This document shows positions 45,473-49,980 of a DNA stretch of 64,000 nt, in pieces. The stretch lies in assembly GCA_963846505.1 (NCBI GenBank), contig CAWJWD010000006.1, forward strand, positions 408,606 through 472,605, in the 5' to 3' direction. Every line of letters begins with the position of its first letter. Within the stretch, counting starts at the first letter, position 1. The translations under genes were made by a program, and so were the position numbers. Source of the DNA: an uncultured Thermoleophilaceae bacterium (GTDB lineage Bacteria > Actinomycetota > Thermoleophilia > Solirubrobacterales > Thermoleophilaceae). The notes beneath the pieces were generated by a model. That model saw nothing but the letters and a program-made list of their open reading frames with translations, had not been told where the DNA came from and did no database searches.

Positions 45473-46381
45473 CTACCCGGTGCCGGCGCGCTCGCGCCAC
45501 CAGGCGACCGTCTCGGCCAGCCCCTCGCGCAGGCCGATCCGCGGGCGGAAGCCGGCCTCGTCGCGCAGCCGCGTCACGTCCGCGACCAGCCGCTCGGGGT
45601 CCCCGGGACGGGTGGGCAGGGCGCCGACGTCGAGCAGGTCGGGCCGGCCGGCCGCCTCGCCGATCGCCTCGATCACCTCGCGCAGCGTGCGGTCCTCGCC
45701 CGAGGCGACGTTGACGGCACCGTGCACGGGCGCGTCCACGAGCGTGGCGAAGGCCGCCCCGACGTCGGCGACGTGCATGAAGTCGCGGCGTTGGGCACCC
45801 GCGCTGGTGGGGGCGCGCTCGCCGCGCGCCAGCGCGCTCGCGACCGACCCCACGAGCCGTCGCTCGTCCTCGTCCGGTCCGTAGAGGAAGAACACCCGCC
45901 CCCAGGCGAGCTCGAGGTCCAGGTCGCCGGCGGCGGTCTCCAGCAGCTCGCGCGTGGCGTTCTTGGCGACGCCGTAGAGCGTGGCGGGGCGCAGCGGCGT
46001 CATCTCCTCGACGCAAGGACCGGGCAGTCCCCACTCGTACTCCGCGCACGAGCCCGCGCAGACGGCGCGCCGGCCACCGGCGGCGGCGAACGCCCGCACG
46101 AGCGCAAGCGTCGCCTCGACCCAGCGCAGGTTCTCGAGCGAGGTCCAGAAGCGCCCGTGCTCGGCATACCAGGCGAGGTGCAGGAGGCGCTCGGGCGCGA
46201 GCTCGGCGACGAGCCCGCCTGGATCCGCCAGCAGGTCGGCGCGGTGCCACTCGACTCCCGCGGGGGATGCCGCCGCCGCACGCGTGGAGACGGCGTGGAC
46301 CTCGTGACCGGCGGCGACCAAGGGGGCGAGCGCGTGGCGGCCGACGAAGCCGCTCGCGCCCGTCACGAGCACCCGGCTCAC
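45473..46381 (-). CDS. NAD-dependent epimerase/dehydratase-family protein, candidate NDP-4-ketohexose reductase (paralogue B)
   Basis: GTG 46381 (GTGA overlap). Contains VSRVLVTGASGFVGRHAL ... YGVAKNATR (YxxxK). Confidence 0.88.
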   Translation of the reverse strand: MSRVLVTGASGFVGRHALAPLVAAGHEVHAVSTRAAAASPAGVEWHRADLLADPGGLVAELAPERLLHLAWYAEHGRFWTSLENLRWVEATLALVRAFAAAGGRRAVCAGSCAEYEWGLPGPCVEEMTPLRPATLYGVAKNATRELLETAAGDLDLELAWGRVFFLYGPDEDERRLVGSVASALARGERAPTSAGAQRRDFMHVADVGAAFATLVDAPVHGAVNVASGEDRTLREVIEAIGEAAGRPDLLDVGALPTRPGDPERLVADVTRLRDEAGFRPRIGLREGLAETVAWWRERAGTG

Positions 46382-46917
46382 GGGGTGTAGTCGGGGTAGC
46401 TCGCGTCGCGCTCGGAGATCGTGCGCCCGTGTGCCGGCGGCGCGGGCCACTCGACGCCGAACGCCGGGTCGTCCCAGCGCACCCCGCCCGCGGCCGCGGG
46501 CACGTACTCGTGTCCCATCACGTAGAGCACCTCGGTGTCGTCGGCGAGCGTCTGGAAGCCGTGCGCGAGCCCGACCGGGACGTAGAGCGAGCGGCCGTCG
46601 TCGGCGCTCAGCTCGACCCCGACCCAGCCGCGATGGGTCGGCGAGTCCGGCCGCAGGTCGACGATCACGTCGTAGATCGCTCCCCGGGTGCAGCGGATCA
46701 GCTTGGGCTCGCCGTGCGGCTCGGCCTGCAGGTGCATCCCCCGCAGGGTGCCGGTGCGCGGGTTGAAGGAGACGTTGCACTGCACGACGCCCGGGTCCAT
46801 GCCGCGCGCGACCCACTCGTCGCGATCGAAGGTCCGCGCGAAGTAGCCGCGCTCGTCCTCGAGGCGGTCGGGGTCGATCACCCACGCCCCGCTCAAGCTG
46901 GTCTCGGCGAATCTCAC
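46378..46917 (-). CDS. NDP-4-keto-6-deoxyhexose 3,5-epimerase (RmlC fold)
   Basis: GTG 46917 (GTGA overlap). Contains DERGYFARTF ... TLRGMHLQ ... KLIRCTRGAIYDVIVDLR ... YVPVGLAHGFQTL. Confidence 0.9.
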   Translation of the reverse strand: MRFAETSLSGAWVIDPDRLEDERGYFARTFDRDEWVARGMDPGVVQCNVSFNPRTGTLRGMHLQAEPHGEPKLIRCTRGAIYDVIVDLRPDSPTHRGWVGVELSADDGRSLYVPVGLAHGFQTLADDTEVLYVMGHEYVPAAAGGVRWDDPAFGVEWPAPPAHGRTISERDASYPDYTP

Positions 46918-48140
46918 TCGAACAGCTGCAGGTCGGGCGCCCGCGCCGCGAAGCGCCCACCCCACTCGCGGATGAACGAGAGCTGCTCGATGATCTCGTC
47001 CTTCAGGTTCCAGGGCAGGATCAGCACGACGTCCGGGCGGTCCTCGCGCAGCACGTCCGGGGAGCGGATCGGGATGTGGGTGCCGGGCAGCAGGTGGTCC
47101 TGCTTGTGCGGGTTGAGGTCGCAGGTGTAGTCGAGGAAGTCCGTGCCCACGCCGCAGTAGTTGAGCAGCGTGTTGCCCTTCGCCGGTGCGCCGTAGCCCA
47201 CGATCCGCTTGCCGTCGCGCTTGAGGGCGATCAGGAACTCGAGGATCTGACGCTTCTCCTCCTCCACCCGCCGTCCGTAGTCGGCGTAGAGCTCGATGCC
47301 GCCATAGCCGGCCGCCCGTTCGCGCTCGAGCAGTTCCTCGGCGCGCGGCTCGCGCGGACGCGGGTCCTCCGCGTGGCAGCCGTAGATGCGCAGCGAGCCG
47401 CCGTGGGTCGGCAGCTCGTCGACGTCGAACAGCCGCAGGCCGTGTGCCTCGAACACCTGCGCGACGGTCCCGAACGAGAAGTACGAGAAGTGCTCGTGGT
47501 AGATCGTGTCCCACTGGTTGTCCTCGACAAGCCGCAGCAGGTGAGGGAACTCCATCGTGATCTGCCCGCCCTCGGCGAGCAGCACCTTCATGCCGCCGAC
47601 GAAGTCGTTGAGGTCCGGCACGTGAGCGAGCACGTTGTTGCCGAGCAGCAGGTCGGCCTTGCGCTCGCCCGTCAGCGAACGTGCCGTCTCGACGCCGAAG
47701 AACTCGACCAGGGTCGGGATGCCCTTCTGCAGCGCCACCTTGGCGACGTTCGCGGCGGGCTCGATCCCGAGCACCGGGATGTGGCGCTCGTGGAAGAACT
47801 GCAGCAGATAGCCGTCGTTGGAGGCCACCTCCACGACGTGGCTCGACTCGCCGAGGCCGAAGCGGTCGACCATCGTCTCCACGTAGCGGCGCGAGTGCTC
47901 GAGCCAGGTCGTCGAGTAGGACGAGAAGTAGGCGTAGTCGCCGAAGATGTGCTCGGGCGTCTCGAACTCCTCCAGCTGCACGAGGAAGCAGCGCTCGCAG
48001 ACGAGTGCGCGCAGCGGATAGAACGGCTCCATGCCGTTGCCCTGCTCCGGCGACAGGTAGGAGTTCGCCAGCGGGGACATCCCGAGGTCCGCGAACACCG
48101 TCGTCAGCGGGGCGGAGCAGAAGCGGCAACTAGCGGTCAA
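46914..48140 (-). CDS. NDP-hexose C-methyltransferase (TylCIII/EvaC-type)
   Basis: TTG 48140 (TTGA overlap with the rfbG stop). Contains the N-terminal Zn ribbon CRFCSAPL...LVCERCFLVQ, the SAM motif VVEVASNDGYLL, and the C-terminal domain GYGAPAKGNTLLNYCGV...DLNPHKQDHLLPGTHIPI. Confidence 0.88.
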   Translation of the reverse strand: MTASCRFCSAPLTTVFADLGMSPLANSYLSPEQGNGMEPFYPLRALVCERCFLVQLEEFETPEHIFGDYAYFSSYSTTWLEHSRRYVETMVDRFGLGESSHVVEVASNDGYLLQFFHERHIPVLGIEPAANVAKVALQKGIPTLVEFFGVETARSLTGERKADLLLGNNVLAHVPDLNDFVGGMKVLLAEGGQITMEFPHLLRLVEDNQWDTIYHEHFSYFSFGTVAQVFEAHGLRLFDVDELPTHGGSLRIYGCHAEDPRPREPRAEELLERERAAGYGGIELYADYGRRVEEEKRQILEFLIALKRDGKRIVGYGAPAKGNTLLNYCGVGTDFLDYTCDLNPHKQDHLLPGTHIPIRSPDVLREDRPDVVLILPWNLKDEIIEQLSFIREWGGRFAARAPDLQLFE

Positions 48141-49243
48141 TGGGACACCTCGAGTCCGGTCGGTGCGAACGAGTCGATTTGGGCCAGCGTCACCTCGCGC
48201 ATGTCCGCGCCGTCGCGCAGTGCCGTGTACCAGCTCGCGATCGAGTCGAGCGCGCTGCCGAGGTCCCAGCGGGGCGTCCAGCCCAGCTCGGTGCCGGCCT
48301 TGGTGGAGTCGAGCGCGAGGAACTGGGCCTCGTGGGGATGGGGGCCAGGGTCGACCTCCCAGCGCAGGTCGGTGTCCCAGCGCTCGGCGAGGCGATCGGC
48401 GATCCAGCGCACCGGGCGGGCGTCGTCGAGCGCCGGGCCGAAGTTCCAGCCGCCCTGCGCGGCCGGGGAGTCCGTGAGCGCCTGCGCCAGCTGCAGGTAG
48501 CCGCTGAGCGGGTTCAGCACGTGCTGCCAGGGCCGCACCGCCTCGGGGTTGCGGATCGGGATCGGCACGCCCTCGAGCGCGCCCCGCATGACGTCCGGGA
48601 TCAGACGGTCCTCGCCCCAGTCGCCGCCGCCGATCACGTTGCCGGCGCGCCCGGAGGCCAGGCGCGGCCCGTCCGGGTTCGGCACGAAGAACGAGCGCAG
48701 ATAGGCGTCGGCGACCAGCTCGGCGCAGCCCTTGGAGTTCGAGTACGGGTCGTGCCCGCCCATCGGGTCGTCCTCGCGAAACGGCCGGCCCTGCTCGCGG
48801 TTGTCGTAGCACTTGTCCGACGTGACGCTGACGACCGCGCGCACGCCGGCGCTCGCCCGGACCGCCTCCAGCACGTTGACGGTGCCCATCACGTTGACCT
48901 CGTAGGTGCTGCGCGGATCCTGGAACGAGCGCCGCACGAACGGCTGGGCGGCCATGTGGATCACGACCTCCGGCTCGTGCTCGAACGCCGCCGCGACGGC
49001 CGCGGGATCGCGCACGTCGCCGCGCAGGTCGACGATGCCGTCGCCGGCACGGGTCAGCTCGTAGAGCGAGGGCGTGGTCGGCACCGTGTCGGCGAAGCCG
49101 ATCACCTCCGCGCCCATGCGACGCAGCCAGAGCGTCAGCCAGGCGCCCTTGAAGCCGGTGTGGCCGGTCAGCAGGACGCGCCGGCCGTGCCAGAAGCCGG
49201 GATCTACGCCCACGTCTTCCAGGGAGCCGAGCCGGAGTCCCAC
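48137..49243 (-). CDS. rfbG: CDP-glucose 4,6-dehydratase
   Basis: [24 protein letters not shown] ... DKCYDN ... [13 protein letters not shown]. An alternative start GTG lies at 49213. Confidence 0.92.
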
Positions 49244-49980
49244 AGTTGCTGCATGACGCCGCGGTCGCGCAGGGTGTCCATCGCCAGCCAGAAGCCCGGG
49301 TGGTGGTAGGCGGCCAGCTCGCCGTCGCGCGCCAAGCCGTTCACGGGCTCCTGCTCCCAGACCATGGCGTCGCCGTCGATGTAGTCGCCGACCTTCGGCG
49401 AGAGCACGAAGAAGCCCCCGTTGATCCAGGCGCCGTCGCCGCGCGGCTTCTCGGTGAAGGAGAGCACGCGCGGCAGTCTCTCATCGATCTCGATCGCACC
49501 GAAGCGGCCTGCCGGCTGGACGGCGGTGACCGTCGCCAGCACGCCCTGCTCGCGGTGGAAGGCGATCAGCGCTCCCACGTCGATGTCCGAGAGGCCGTCG
49601 CCGTAGGTGAAGCAGAAGTCCTCGTCGCCCAGGTAGGGCAGCACGCGCTTGAGGCGGCCGGCGGTCTGCGTGCCCTGGCCGGTGTCGACGAGCGTCACCT
49701 TCCACGGCTCGGTGGTCGAGTGATGGACGTCCATCGACCCGGCCGCGAGGTCGAAGGTCACGTCCGACGAGTGCAGGGCGTAGTTGGCGAACCACTCCTT
49801 GATCACATAGCCCTTGTAGCCCAGGCAGATCACGAACTCGTTGATCCCGTGTGAGGAGAAGATCTTCATGATGTGCCAGAGGATCGGCTTGGCACCGATC
49901 TCGACCATCGGCTTGGGCCGCAGCTGGGTCTCCTCGGAGAGCCGCGAGCCCAGCCCACCGGCGAGTATCACCGCCTTCAT
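49204..49980 (-). CDS. rfbF: glucose-1-phosphate cytidylyltransferase
   Basis: ATG 49980. Contains [39 protein letters not shown] ... GGFFVL. Confidence 0.93.

Follow-up and report, generated by a model that had tools for sequence, protein, structure and literature searches.

Five genes on the minus strand of a 64,000-nt stretch of DNA (the window; gene coordinates refer to it) place a CDP-glucose pathway beside a C-methyltransferase, and the locus raises the question of which sugar the combination makes. Our analysis suggests, with a probability of about 0.6, that the cassette would convert glucose-1-phosphate to a CDP-6-deoxy-3-C-methyl hexose of the L series for a cell-envelope glycan. The sequence-only reading had proposed the same pathway, and its logic is coherent.

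Gene identities in the cassette

The ORF list of the window contains five intact, overlapping minus-strand genes at 45473–49980: rfbF (ddhA; 49204–49980), encoding glucose-1-phosphate cytidylyltransferase, which makes CDP-D-glucose; rfbG (48137–49243, with an alternative GTG start near 49213), encoding CDP-glucose 4,6-dehydratase; a gene for an NDP-hexose C-methyltransferase (MT; 46914–48140); a gene for an RmlC-fold epimerase (46378–46917), predicted to invert the CDP-4-keto intermediate at C-5 or at both C-3 and C-5; and a gene for an extended short-chain dehydrogenase/reductase (SDR; 45473–46381; PF01370), predicted to be a CDP-4-keto-3-C-methyl-6-deoxyhexose 4-reductase. Three junctions have 4-nt overlaps (TTGA at rfbG/MT, GTGA at MT/epimerase, and GTGA at epimerase/SDR), and the rfbF/rfbG overlap is 11 or 40 nt, according to the GTG start picked. 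The ORFs and their junctions bear out the earlier description of five translationally coupled genes, and the five probably constitute one translationally coupled module. Their GC3 of 0.94–0.96 resembles that of the window's housekeeping genes.

Profile searches against Pfam and NCBIfam uphold the identities that the sequence-only reading had assigned to the five genes, including the use of CDP, rather than dTDP or GDP, by the first two enzymes. Specifically, RfbF matches the equivalog model TIGR02623 over its full length (429.6 bits; cut-off 300.25), in addition to PF00483, and is 60–77% identical to the products of rfbF genes flanking MT homologs in other genomes. RfbG matches the equivalog model TIGR02622 (447.5 bits; cut-off 278.45), whereas it scores only 96.7 against the dTDP dehydratase model TIGR01181 (cut-off 365) and only 43.6 against the GDP dehydratase model TIGR01472 (cut-off 415); its GxxGxxG motif, D143-K144, and Y167xxxK171 are kept across 24 cassette homologs. 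Of the ORFs scanned, at 20.9–62.7 kb, none was of the DegT type (ddhC-like), in agreement with the claim that the continuation to 3,6-dideoxyhexoses is absent. A GDP-mannose 4,6-dehydratase gene (gmd) lies 43 bp upstream of rfbF in divergent orientation, and is another possible source of a 4-keto-6-deoxy substrate.

The MT contains a PF08421 Zn ribbon (86 bits), a class I SAM methyltransferase domain (PF13489), and a PF08484 C-methyltransferase C-terminal domain (205.7 bits), with residues 315–328 forming the GYGAPAKGNTLLNY motif. Its closest solved structures are MtmC (4rv9, 8e-92), KijD1 (5t64), and TcaB9 (3ndi). The MT keeps the Zn-ribbon cysteines C5, C8, C48, and C51, together with the TcaB9-equivalent residues H173 and Y214/E216/H217, and its Y-x-E-H catalytic motif is intact; domains, residues, and structure matches all agree with the TylCIII-type assignment made earlier. 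In a neighbor-joining tree that sampled MtmC, KijD1, TcaB9, and an enediyne-cluster MT beside them, the cytidylyltransferase-linked MTs, that of the window included, form a single clade separate from these four. We compared 87 loci related through the MT, and cytidylyltransferase genes adjoin the clade's MT in 78 of them, contrary to the statement that enzymes of this type normally act on dTDP-sugars in antibiotic clusters, an impression that arises from which enzymes were studied.

Predicted pathway and alternatives

In the proposed pathway, RfbF would form CDP-D-glucose and RfbG would convert it to CDP-4-keto-6-deoxy-D-glucose. The Zn-ribbon MT would then generate the C-3 enolate beside the 4-keto group and add the methyl group of SAM, so that C-3 would carry a tertiary alcohol; the RmlC-type epimerase would invert C-5, or C-3 and C-5 if it acts ahead of methylation; and the SDR, with NAD(P)H, would reduce the 4-keto group. 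Candidate products are the vinelose core (6-deoxy-3-C-methyl-L-talose), CDP-vinelose, in which the sugar is also 2-O-methylated, having Azotobacter vinelandii as its source, and the C-4 epimer of that core (3-C-methyl-L-rhamnose). The RfbF and RfbG steps are assigned from the equivalog-level profile matches, and the MT and SDR steps from homology to the characterized Bacillus cereus-type operon; the epimerase step, the order of MT and epimerase, and the stereochemistry at C-3 and C-4 we infer.

RmlC-fold enzymes may be 3-, 5-, or 3,5-epimerases. A D-series product resembling cereose or cillose is unlikely; on this reading the RmlC-fold protein would serve as a 3-epimerase only, before methylation, or be dispensable, and the pathway would be that of Bacillus with an accessory gene. 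Epimerase-free four-gene versions with a homologous reductase (43–44% identical) exist in loci L041 and L066 and in Bacillus, and nucleotide-sugar mono-epimerases of RmlC fold (5buv, 4hn0, and 8dcl) are among the PDB matches. However, the closest PDB matches are bona fide RmlC 3,5-epimerases (~1e-40), as compared to 1e-22 or weaker for the mono-epimerases, and the His/Lys/Tyr/Asp set of full RmlC enzymes (H62, K72, Y132, and D171) is at least 95% conserved across 64 cassette homologs. The protein matches PF00908 strongly (201 bits, 1e-59) and the rmlC model TIGR01221 marginally (156.7; cut-off 155.75). In 63 of the 87 loci the MT gene has an RmlC-like neighbor no more than 8 kb away, making MT–rmlC adjacency the clade's most conserved feature and, therefore, an argument for an obligatory epimerase role.

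A reductase function for the SDR is likewise predicted, from a family that covers 2- and 4-epimerases besides reductases. There is a small chance that this SDR is a 2- or 4-epimerase (tyvelose-epimerase-like) or acts after glycosyl transfer, with reduction performed by the MT, through MtmC-like bifunctionality, or by another enzyme. The closest solved structures to the SDR are epimerases (MoeE5 and UDP-glucose 4-epimerases); MtmC, the closest PDB match of the MT, is also a 4-ketoreductase; and the pairing of the SDR with a GT2 glycosyltransferase is conserved and duplicated. Against this, the SDR is homologous over its full length to the fourth gene product (reductase) of a Bacillus four-gene operon (35% identity, E 6e-77), and the pathway requires a 4-reductase, for which the cassette has no other candidate. 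Q81B30, at the fourth-gene position in B. cereus, is moreover filed under CDP-6-deoxy/3,6-dideoxyhexose 4-reductases in PMC7725333. The SDR shares 45% identity with the SDR of a Methylocystis five-gene cassette, and GxxGxxG and Y136 are kept in homologs. Either of two SDRs may serve the C-methyl branch, because the window has a second SDR (37566–38525, minus strand; PF01370), a 67%-identical paralog (BLASTP, E 5e-145) and possible second 4-reductase.

C-5 methyltransferases (NovU) also belong to the family of the MT, which is predicted to act at C-3 of CDP-4-keto-6-deoxyhexose. It is improbable that the MT instead acts at C-5, following the logic of noviose synthesis (NovW epimerase, NovU C-5 methyltransferase, and NovS reductase) to yield a CDP-5-C-methyl-L-rhamnose-type sugar. 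The noviose gene set is alike in kind (nucleotidyltransferase, 4,6-dehydratase, RmlC-like protein, C-methyltransferase, and reductase), with NovU having the accession Q9L9E7. In PMC7725333, Q9L9E7 and Q81B31 are placed in one C-methyltransferase family. However, the MT shares 55.7% identity with its 407-aa counterpart in the rfbF-rfbG-MT-SDR operon of Bacillus, as compared to only 32–40% with the dTDP/antibiotic-type enzymes sampled. The Bacillus-type enzyme reportedly yields 3-C-methyl products. The C-3 regiochemistry is drawn from this 56% identity to a Bacillus homolog that perhaps is not the assayed enzyme itself.

Very improbable is a Coxiella virenose-like scheme, modeled on the GDP-based route to 6-deoxy-3-C-methyl-D-gulose proposed in Coxiella (PMC3539893, PMC3204966), in which the MT, epimerase, and SDR would use GDP-4-keto-6-deoxy-D-mannose from the adjacent gmd while rfbF and rfbG feed another sugar: the gmd, beginning 43 bp from rfbF on the opposite strand, is bona fide (TIGR01472, 450 bits; cut-off 415), but gmd neighbors the MT in 0 of the 87 related loci, versus 78 for a cytidylyltransferase gene, rfbG overlaps the MT gene by 4 nt, and the five-gene order is kept across phyla without gmd.

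Downstream glycan genes

The predicted L-series CDP-6-deoxy-3-C-methyl hexose would then pass to glycosyltransferases and a Wzx flippase encoded downstream, also on the minus strand, in what is probably a cell-envelope glycan cluster of a soil actinobacterium (Solirubrobacteraceae). The candidate transferase for the branched sugar is the GT2 glycosyltransferase paired with the SDR (44476–45435; PF13641, PF00535), homologs of which (57–63% identity) adjoin the SDR in loci L004, L008, L010, L011, and L012. It is followed by a GT-B glycosyltransferase (Glyco_trans_1_4; 43157–44476; PF13692) with a 51%-identical homolog in L004, and by a conserved protein of the same operon (42189–43334) that has no match in Pfam, NCBIfam, or the PDB even at E=1 and has 1–3 homologs (37–46% identity) in each of the related loci L008, L010, and L012. 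Farther on are a GT2 glycosyltransferase (40088–41410; PF00535) and the Wzx-type flippase (Polysacc_synt; 38601–40184; PF01943, PF13440), with 12 hydrophobic segments in a crude hydropathy scan. The SDR–GT2 pairing occurs twice in the window, the second SDR being paired with a GT2 (36557–37648) that is 73% identical to the first.

The second methyltransferase noted earlier near the cassette is present as a class I SAM methyltransferase gene (41254–42237; PF13489, 1.4e-21), a candidate sugar O-methyltransferase in which the profile search gave no Zn ribbon and no C-methyltransferase C-terminal domain. Homologs (44–60% identity) lie within or beside the sugar cassette in L004, L005, L009, L010, and L012, and the enzyme possibly O-methylates the cassette sugar.

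Distribution and known systems

Judged by gene content, the five-gene version is widespread. The identical order rfbF-rfbG-MT-rmlC-SDR is present in two Acidobacteriota loci (L030 and L081), a gammaproteobacterial MAG (L083), and a plasmid of Methylocystis sp. MJC1 (L089), and six Solirubrobacterales loci also group these five genes, contiguously in L004 and L011 and interspersed with others in L005, L009, L010, and L012.

The chemistry of the sequence-only reading is sound, but its novelty was overstated. It knew of no described genetics for CDP-vinelose; for CDP-sugar C-methylation in general, both genetics and biochemistry are described, in a four-gene operon of B. cereus spores that leads to CDP-cereose/CDP-cillose (Li et al. 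2017, as cited in PMC7725333 and PMC10050317). Q81B31 and Q81B30 appear as characterized enzymes in the PMC7725333 supplement; the Bacillus operon compared here matches them in architecture and protein lengths, and its products may not be the assayed enzymes. The gene combination had also been recorded earlier, in Synechocystis (an uncharacterized set of rfbF-rfbG-rfbC plus a "C-3 methyltransferase"; slr0983–0985 and slr1610), in S. meliloti (SMb21416–18), and, in the form of an rfbFGC cluster, in A. vinelandii. The CDP-based C-methyl branch itself was thus already known; unlike the Bacillus four-gene operon, the window's cassette adds an RmlC-type epimerase, and this five-gene form is what is new here.

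A CDP-sugar gene cassette within a glycan island

Five minus-strand ORFs occupy 45473-49980, where the sequence-only reading had placed them, and profile searches confirm the functions that it had assigned. In particular, 49204-49980 encodes a glucose-1-phosphate cytidylyltransferase (RfbF; TIGR02623, 429.6 bits, cut-off 300.25), and 48137-49243 encodes a CDP-glucose 4,6-dehydratase (RfbG; TIGR02622, 447.5 bits, cut-off 278.45). The dehydratase stays far below the cut-off of either the dTDP-glucose or the GDP-mannose dehydratase model, which supports the CDP carrier claimed for the first two enzymes. 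The remaining genes encode a sugar C-methyltransferase (46914-48140; PF08421, 86 bits; PF13489, 48 bits; PF08484, 205.7 bits), an RmlC-fold protein (46378-46917; PF00908, 201 bits), and an extended SDR (45473-46381; profile match). Against TIGR01221, the RmlC-fold protein has a marginal score, 156.7 bits for a cut-off of 155.75; its adjacent genes encode CDP enzymes and include no rmlA, rmlB, or rmlD.

The cassette junctions TTGA, GTGA, and GTGA, together with an rfbF/rfbG overlap of 11-40 nt, indicate that the five genes are translationally coupled; the RmlC-type gene sits between the methyltransferase and SDR genes, with 4-nt overlaps on both sides. The G+C content of the window is 72%, and the GC3 of the five genes, 0.94-0.96, is the same as that of the housekeeping genes of the window, so that recent horizontal acquisition of the cassette is unsupported. 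Among the ORFs scanned at 20.9-62.7 kb, with small ORFs incompletely covered, no DegT-family or E3-like match was found, and hence neither DdhC (E1, the PMP-dependent 3-dehydrase) nor DdhD (the E3 reductase), in agreement with the absence noted from the sequence. No thymidylyltransferase, polyketide, or NRPS genes were found near the cassette among the ORFs scanned in the glycan island.

This island spans about 20.9-62.7 kb of the window. Downstream of the cassette, on the same strand, a GT2 (44476-45435) and a GT-B glycosyltransferase (43157-44476) are encoded first. Next come a conserved soluble protein of 381 aa within the operon (42189-43334), a second methyltransferase, of class I (41254-42237), and one more GT2 (40088-41410). 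The gene for a Wzx flippase (38601-40184) is followed by those for a second SDR (37566-38525), 67% identical to the cassette SDR, and a further GT2 (36557-37648), 73% identical to that at 44476-45435. The 381-aa protein has one to three homologous copies in three of the loci with methyltransferase homologs (L008, L010, and L012), and has no Pfam or NCBIfam match (to E = 1) and no PDB sequence match (E ≤ 1). The GT2 and SDR genes thus form a duplicated pair, at 36557-38525 and 44476-46381. The two pairs might start from one 4-keto intermediate and install it as two different C-4 epimers; alternatively, one of them might serve a GDP-6-deoxyhexose branch fed by gmd, the divergent GDP-mannose 4,6-dehydratase gene upstream of rfbF (TIGR01472, 450 bits). 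The divergent starts of rfbF (49980, minus) and gmd (ATG at 50024, plus) are separated by 43 bp (49981-50023), scant space for two promoters, which suggests leaderless transcripts or overlapping transcription signals.

The block of glycosyltransferase and second methyltransferase genes at 40088-45435 has a GC3 of 0.80-0.85, below the 0.94-0.96 of the cassette, consistent with this segment being serotype-variable and more recently exchanged. The ORF at 35536-36720 (minus) was rejected as probably a shadow ORF, with a GC3 of 0.58 and a GC2 of 0.79, compared with a GC3 of at least 0.8 in real genes. Elsewhere, 23758-25080 and 27132-29369 encode an ABC-transporter ATPase of the Wzt type, equipped with a carbohydrate-binding Wzt_C domain, and a WsaF-like transferase; a WecG/TagA-type transferase and a second Wzx flippase are also encoded in the island. 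The island thus holds genes for glycan assembly by both the ABC-transporter-dependent and the Wzx-dependent route. A protein of 806 aa (29377-31797), which has some 13 hydrophobic segments and matches no Pfam or NCBIfam family to E = 1, is a candidate polymerase or ligase. The cassette product presumably goes into a cell-wall glycopolymer.

Beyond gmd lies an LhgO-family FAD oxidase gene (51056-52300; NF008726, 471 bits), which we left aside as a pathway member because close Solirubrobacterales relatives show no linkage of it to the cassette. LhgO-type homologs (32-44% identical) are embedded between rfbF and an SDR-methyltransferase-RmlC block in L013, L015, L018, L022, L029, L031, L033, L044, L047, L050, L067, L072, and L073, loci of Cyanobacteria, a Tatlockia MAG, Chromatiales, Thermithiobacillus, Verrucomicrobiota, and Nitrospirales. 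These cassettes have no recognisable RfbG and thus constitute a distinct architecture.

The methyltransferase and its genomic surroundings

The best solved relatives of the window methyltransferase are the dTDP-sugar 3-C-methyltransferases MtmC (8e-92), KijD1, and TcaB9, and it aligns at full length with 4rv9, 5t64, and 3ndi. Residues C5, C8, C48, C51, Y214, E216, and H217 do not vary among 23 homologs, H173 shows at least 90% conservation, and these conserved residues line up with the TcaB9 motifs IYDEH and CHIP. The cysteines reportedly bind Zn, and the histidine and the Tyr-x-Glu-His motif reportedly act in the active site (Bruender and Holden 2012). To judge from these residues, the enzyme looks catalytically competent.

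Homologs number more than 8000 in the database at E < 1e-30, the best 120 all being at least 79% identical to the window enzyme. In a pattern scan that took one genome for each GTDB species, there were at least 600 matches, and 599 of those listed were confirmed as relatives. The best 80 of those listed are 58-82% identical and come from Solirubrobacterales, Cyanobacteria, Acidobacteriota, Nitrospirota, Planctomycetota, Bacteroidota, Verrucomicrobiota, several classes of Pseudomonadota, and one Bathyarchaeota MAG; the closest among the GTDB matches listed are from Solirubrobacteraceae MAGs (79-82%), which places the host among the Thermoleophilia, within the Actinomycetota. The Bathyarchaeota homolog (L074; 58% identical) lies on a contig binned as archaeal, possibly through horizontal transfer or a binning error, and no cytidylyltransferase or RmlC-like neighbour was detected there.

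A context survey was performed by tblastn with the window proteins against the GTDB-scan loci and eight plasmid loci, and counts refer to the 87 loci with a methyltransferase more than 40% identical. A cytidylyltransferase-type gene lies within 8 kb of the methyltransferase gene in 78 of the 87 loci, and an RmlC-type gene does so in 63. In a neighbor-joining tree, all cytidylyltransferase-linked methyltransferases form one clade, apart from MtmC, KijD1, TcaB9, and an enediyne-cluster enzyme whose gene adjoins a thymidylyltransferase gene; identity between the window enzyme and the dTDP-type enzymes of antibiotic clusters is 32-40%. The cytidylyltransferase-linked clade has at least 600 matches in GTDB species genomes, from Actinomycetota, Cyanobacteria, Acidobacteriota, Nitrospirota, Pseudomonadota, Bacteroidota, and others. 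The earlier premise that methyltransferases of this type normally serve dTDP-sugars in antibiotic clusters thus reflects what has been studied rather than what genomes contain, since the cytidylyltransferase-linked enzymes form a clade of their own.

All five cassette genes are present in nine GTDB-scan loci. In five of these, they form a contiguous block in the order of the window (L004 and L011, Solirubrobacterales; L030 and L081, Acidobacteriota; L083, a gammaproteobacterial MAG), and in four, all from Solirubrobacterales, other genes are interspersed (L005, L009, L010, and L012). The contiguous block in the same order is also found on a plasmid of a cultured methanotroph, Methylocystis sp. 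MJC1 (WP_165056096, WP_165056094, WP_165056093, WP_165056091, and WP_165056089), with an SDR 45% and an epimerase 47% identical to those of the window. In RefSeq, this epimerase is named "dTDP-4-dehydrorhamnose 3,5-epimerase" and the methyltransferase is a generic "class I SAM-dependent methyltransferase", names that, as now given, obscure the pathway. Four-gene versions without the epimerase occur in L084 (Bacillus), L041 (a Thermodesulfobacteriaceae MAG), and L066 (a Nitrospirales MAG).

Two other architectures were seen. In L001, L086, L090, L091, and about 25 further loci, a methyltransferase of the clade is paired with a divergent cytidylyltransferase-like gene, whose product shares about 35% identity with RfbF. 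Loci of this type also hold an RmlC-like gene and genes for a PIG-L deacetylase, an aminotransferase of the glutamate-1-semialdehyde-aminomutase type, and a DUF4910 protein, and probably specify a different branched amino-sugar pathway. A 32-kb plasmid of Brachyspira hyodysenteriae (L085) carries together rfbF, a radical SAM gene, an RmlC-like gene, a C-methyltransferase gene (50% identical), and a DegT aminotransferase gene, with further genes for an acetyltransferase, an SDR, a second methyltransferase, a radical SAM/SPASM protein, and an ATP-grasp protein; this set looks like elaborate CDP-sugar tailoring.

Predicted route and competing explanations

We propose that RfbF and RfbG, supported at equivalog level, would form CDP-D-glucose and then CDP-4-keto-6-deoxy-D-glucose. 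The methyltransferase would next transfer a methyl group from SAM to C-3, via an enolate beside the 4-keto group. The assignment to C-3 is an inference from the position of the enzyme in the clade that contains the Bacillus enzyme and from its intact TcaB9-type active site. The RmlC-type enzyme would then epimerise the product. If methylation comes first, C-3 would be quaternary and hence inversion would be confined to C-5, as it is on the way to dTDP-L-mycarose and L-epivancosamine; if epimerisation comes first, both C-3 and C-5 would be inverted. Either order would give an L-series sugar. Finally, the SDR would reduce the 4-keto group. With C-2 left in the D-glucose configuration, the product could be either 6-deoxy-3-C-methyl-L-talose or 6-deoxy-3-C-methyl-L-mannose, depending on the stereochemistry at C-3. 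The 2-O-methylated form of the former is vinelose.

The O-methyltransferase candidate that had been placed in the same operon is indeed a class I enzyme (the second methyltransferase, on the minus strand). Its homologs lie inside or beside the sugar cassette in five Solirubrobacterales loci, which fits an action on the sugar of the cassette.

Four other explanations bear on individual steps. A D-series product, for which the epimerase would be a mono-3-epimerase, is unlikely; epimerase residues His62, Lys72, Tyr132, and Asp171, at least 95% conserved among 64 cassette homologs, presumably correspond to RmlC H63, K73, Y133, and D170. That the SDR is itself an epimerase and not a reductase is rather unlikely, given its full-length homology to the Bacillus reductase (35% identity to the L084 protein over 298 aa, E 6e-77). 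Methylation at C-5, as in noviose, appears quite improbable, since the window methyltransferase is 56% identical to the Bacillus-type enzyme. A GDP-linked substrate supplied by the adjacent gmd is the least credible and was dropped as the main reading, with synteny strongly against it: tblastn detected gmd near the methyltransferase gene in none of the 87 related loci.

The most far-reaching reading, to which we give a probability of roughly 0.3, combines three elements: the cassette and the linked second methyltransferase would be the genetic basis of CDP-vinelose-type sugars, the methyltransferase clade would represent a widespread class of C-branched L-sugars, and the duplicated pairs would yield two C-4 epimers. 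If so, the clade marks chemically unexplored C-branched L-sugars in the envelopes of environmental bacteria, and the duplicated reductase-GT2 pairs would act on a single 4-keto intermediate. The epimerase-containing version keeps its gene order across several phyla, and the methyltransferase clade is overwhelmingly linked to cytidylyltransferase genes at glycan loci; soil and aquatic bacteria whose envelopes were never examined chemically may therefore often carry branched 6-deoxy-L-hexoses there.

Comparison with known systems

The logic of the window cassette is that of the antibiotic dTDP-L-mycarose, L-epivancosamine, and L-noviose pathways (TylC3/TylK/TylC2, EvaC/EvaD/EvaE, and NovW/NovU/NovS), in which a 4-keto-6-deoxy intermediate undergoes SAM-dependent C-methylation beside the ketone, epimerisation by an RmlC-fold enzyme, and 4-ketoreduction. 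The fold and catalytic motif of the methyltransferase are likewise those of TcaB9, KijD1, and MtmC. However, the antibiotic pathways use a dTDP carrier and 2,6-dideoxy or 3-amino substrates and belong to secondary metabolism, whereas the window has CDP-type genes with glycosyltransferases and Wzx. With the Salmonella and Yersinia CDP-3,6-dideoxyhexose pathways (ddhA-D plus abe/prt/tyv; ascarylose), the window shares RfbF/DdhA and RfbG/DdhB, matched at equivalog level, and differs at the branch point, with C-methylation instead of 3-deoxygenation.

The gene combination is not new. Fisher et al. 2013 (PMC3769361) noted that in Synechocystis the genes slr0983-0985 (rfbF, rfbG, and rfbC) precede slr1610, described as a "putative C-3 methyltransferase". 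Citing Hausman et al. 1998, they also mention that Azotobacter vinelandii has an rfbFGC cluster. On Sinorhizobium meliloti pSymB, SMb21416-21418 are annotated as ddhA, ddhB, and "NDP-hexose 3-C-methyltransferase", the last 50% identical to the window methyltransferase. Like the window, these clusters join CDP-glucose genes to an RmlC-like gene, a "C-3 methyltransferase" gene, or both; unlike the window, Synechocystis has the order F-G-C-M, and the S. meliloti trio has no adjacent epimerase or reductase gene. For Coxiella burnetii virenose (6-deoxy-3-C-methyl-D-gulose), a sugar of the LPS O-antigen, it has been proposed that a TylCIII-like enzyme methylates a 4-keto-6-deoxyhexose at C-3 (PMC3539893). 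That route, partly verified, is of the D-series with a proposed GDP carrier derived from GDP-mannose, whereas the window has CDP genes.

C-branched sugars are known mostly from antibiotics, and to our knowledge the B. cereus spore sugar pathway is the sole proven CDP-based route to them. In this pathway, which Li et al. reportedly described in 2017, a CDP-Glc synthase, a CDP-Glc 4,6-dehydratase, a C-3 methyltransferase, and a 4-reductase lead to CDP-3-C-methyl-6-deoxy-gulose and -allose, which are D-series sugars. The Bacillus operon and the window share four genes and their order, those for CDP-glucose synthase, CDP-glucose 4,6-dehydratase, the Zn-ribbon C-methyltransferase, and the SDR 4-reductase; the window set presumably feeds a surface glycan, as the Bacillus operon does. 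The window differs in having an epimerase gene between the methyltransferase and reductase genes, absent from the Bacillus operon, and an added second methyltransferase. The sequence-only reading was aware of no described genetics for CDP-vinelose, the one chemically known nucleotide sugar of this kind that it named; a CDP-based C-methyl branch, the B. cereus pathway to CDP-cereose and CDP-cillose, has been characterised, according to PMC7725333 and PMC10050317, which cite Li et al. (J Biol Chem 2017, 292:7636). PMC7725333 treats it as established; in the supplement to that paper, Q81B31 (407 aa) is one of the nucleotide-sugar C-methyltransferases with experimental characterisation, and Q81B30 (302 aa) is placed in the CDP-6-deoxy/3,6-dideoxyhexose 4-reductase family. 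The Bacillus operon L084, from the plasmid collection, encodes proteins of 255, 359, 407, and 307 aa, exactly the cereose/cillose architecture; the window methyltransferase is 55.7% identical to its 407-aa enzyme and in the same clade, the reference here being L084 and not Q81B31 itself.

In 1967-68, Okuda, Suzuki and Suzuki reportedly identified CDP-vinelose from A. vinelandii as CDP-6-deoxy-3-C-methyl-2-O-methyl-L-talose, and we know of no assignment of its biosynthesis since its isolation in the 1960s. The literature searched, with subscription journals largely outside it, contains no mention of vinelose or of a gene assignment for CDP-vinelose and no description of an epimerase-containing CDP C-methyl pathway; among the best 60 plasmid matches, there is no Azotobacter record. 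CDP-vinelose is CDP-linked, 6-deoxy, 3-C-methyl, L-series, and O-methylated, traits that the window enzyme set could produce, and it needs no 2-epimerase because its C-2 keeps the D-glucose configuration. Specifically, the window has genes for the CDP carrier, 6-deoxygenation, and C-methylation, as well as for an epimerase and a second methyltransferase. The sugar comes from Azotobacter, whereas the window is from a member of the Solirubrobacteraceae. On this gene content, the five-gene cassette is a plausible genetic basis of CDP-vinelose-type L-sugars. The CDP C-methyl branch was already known from B. cereus, and the gene combination had been remarked on earlier; what is new here is the epimerase-containing five-gene variant, kept across phyla and without a characterised member. 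It provides a concrete candidate gene set for CDP-vinelose, whose source organism, A. vinelandii, is reported in PMC3769361 to carry an rfbFGC cluster.
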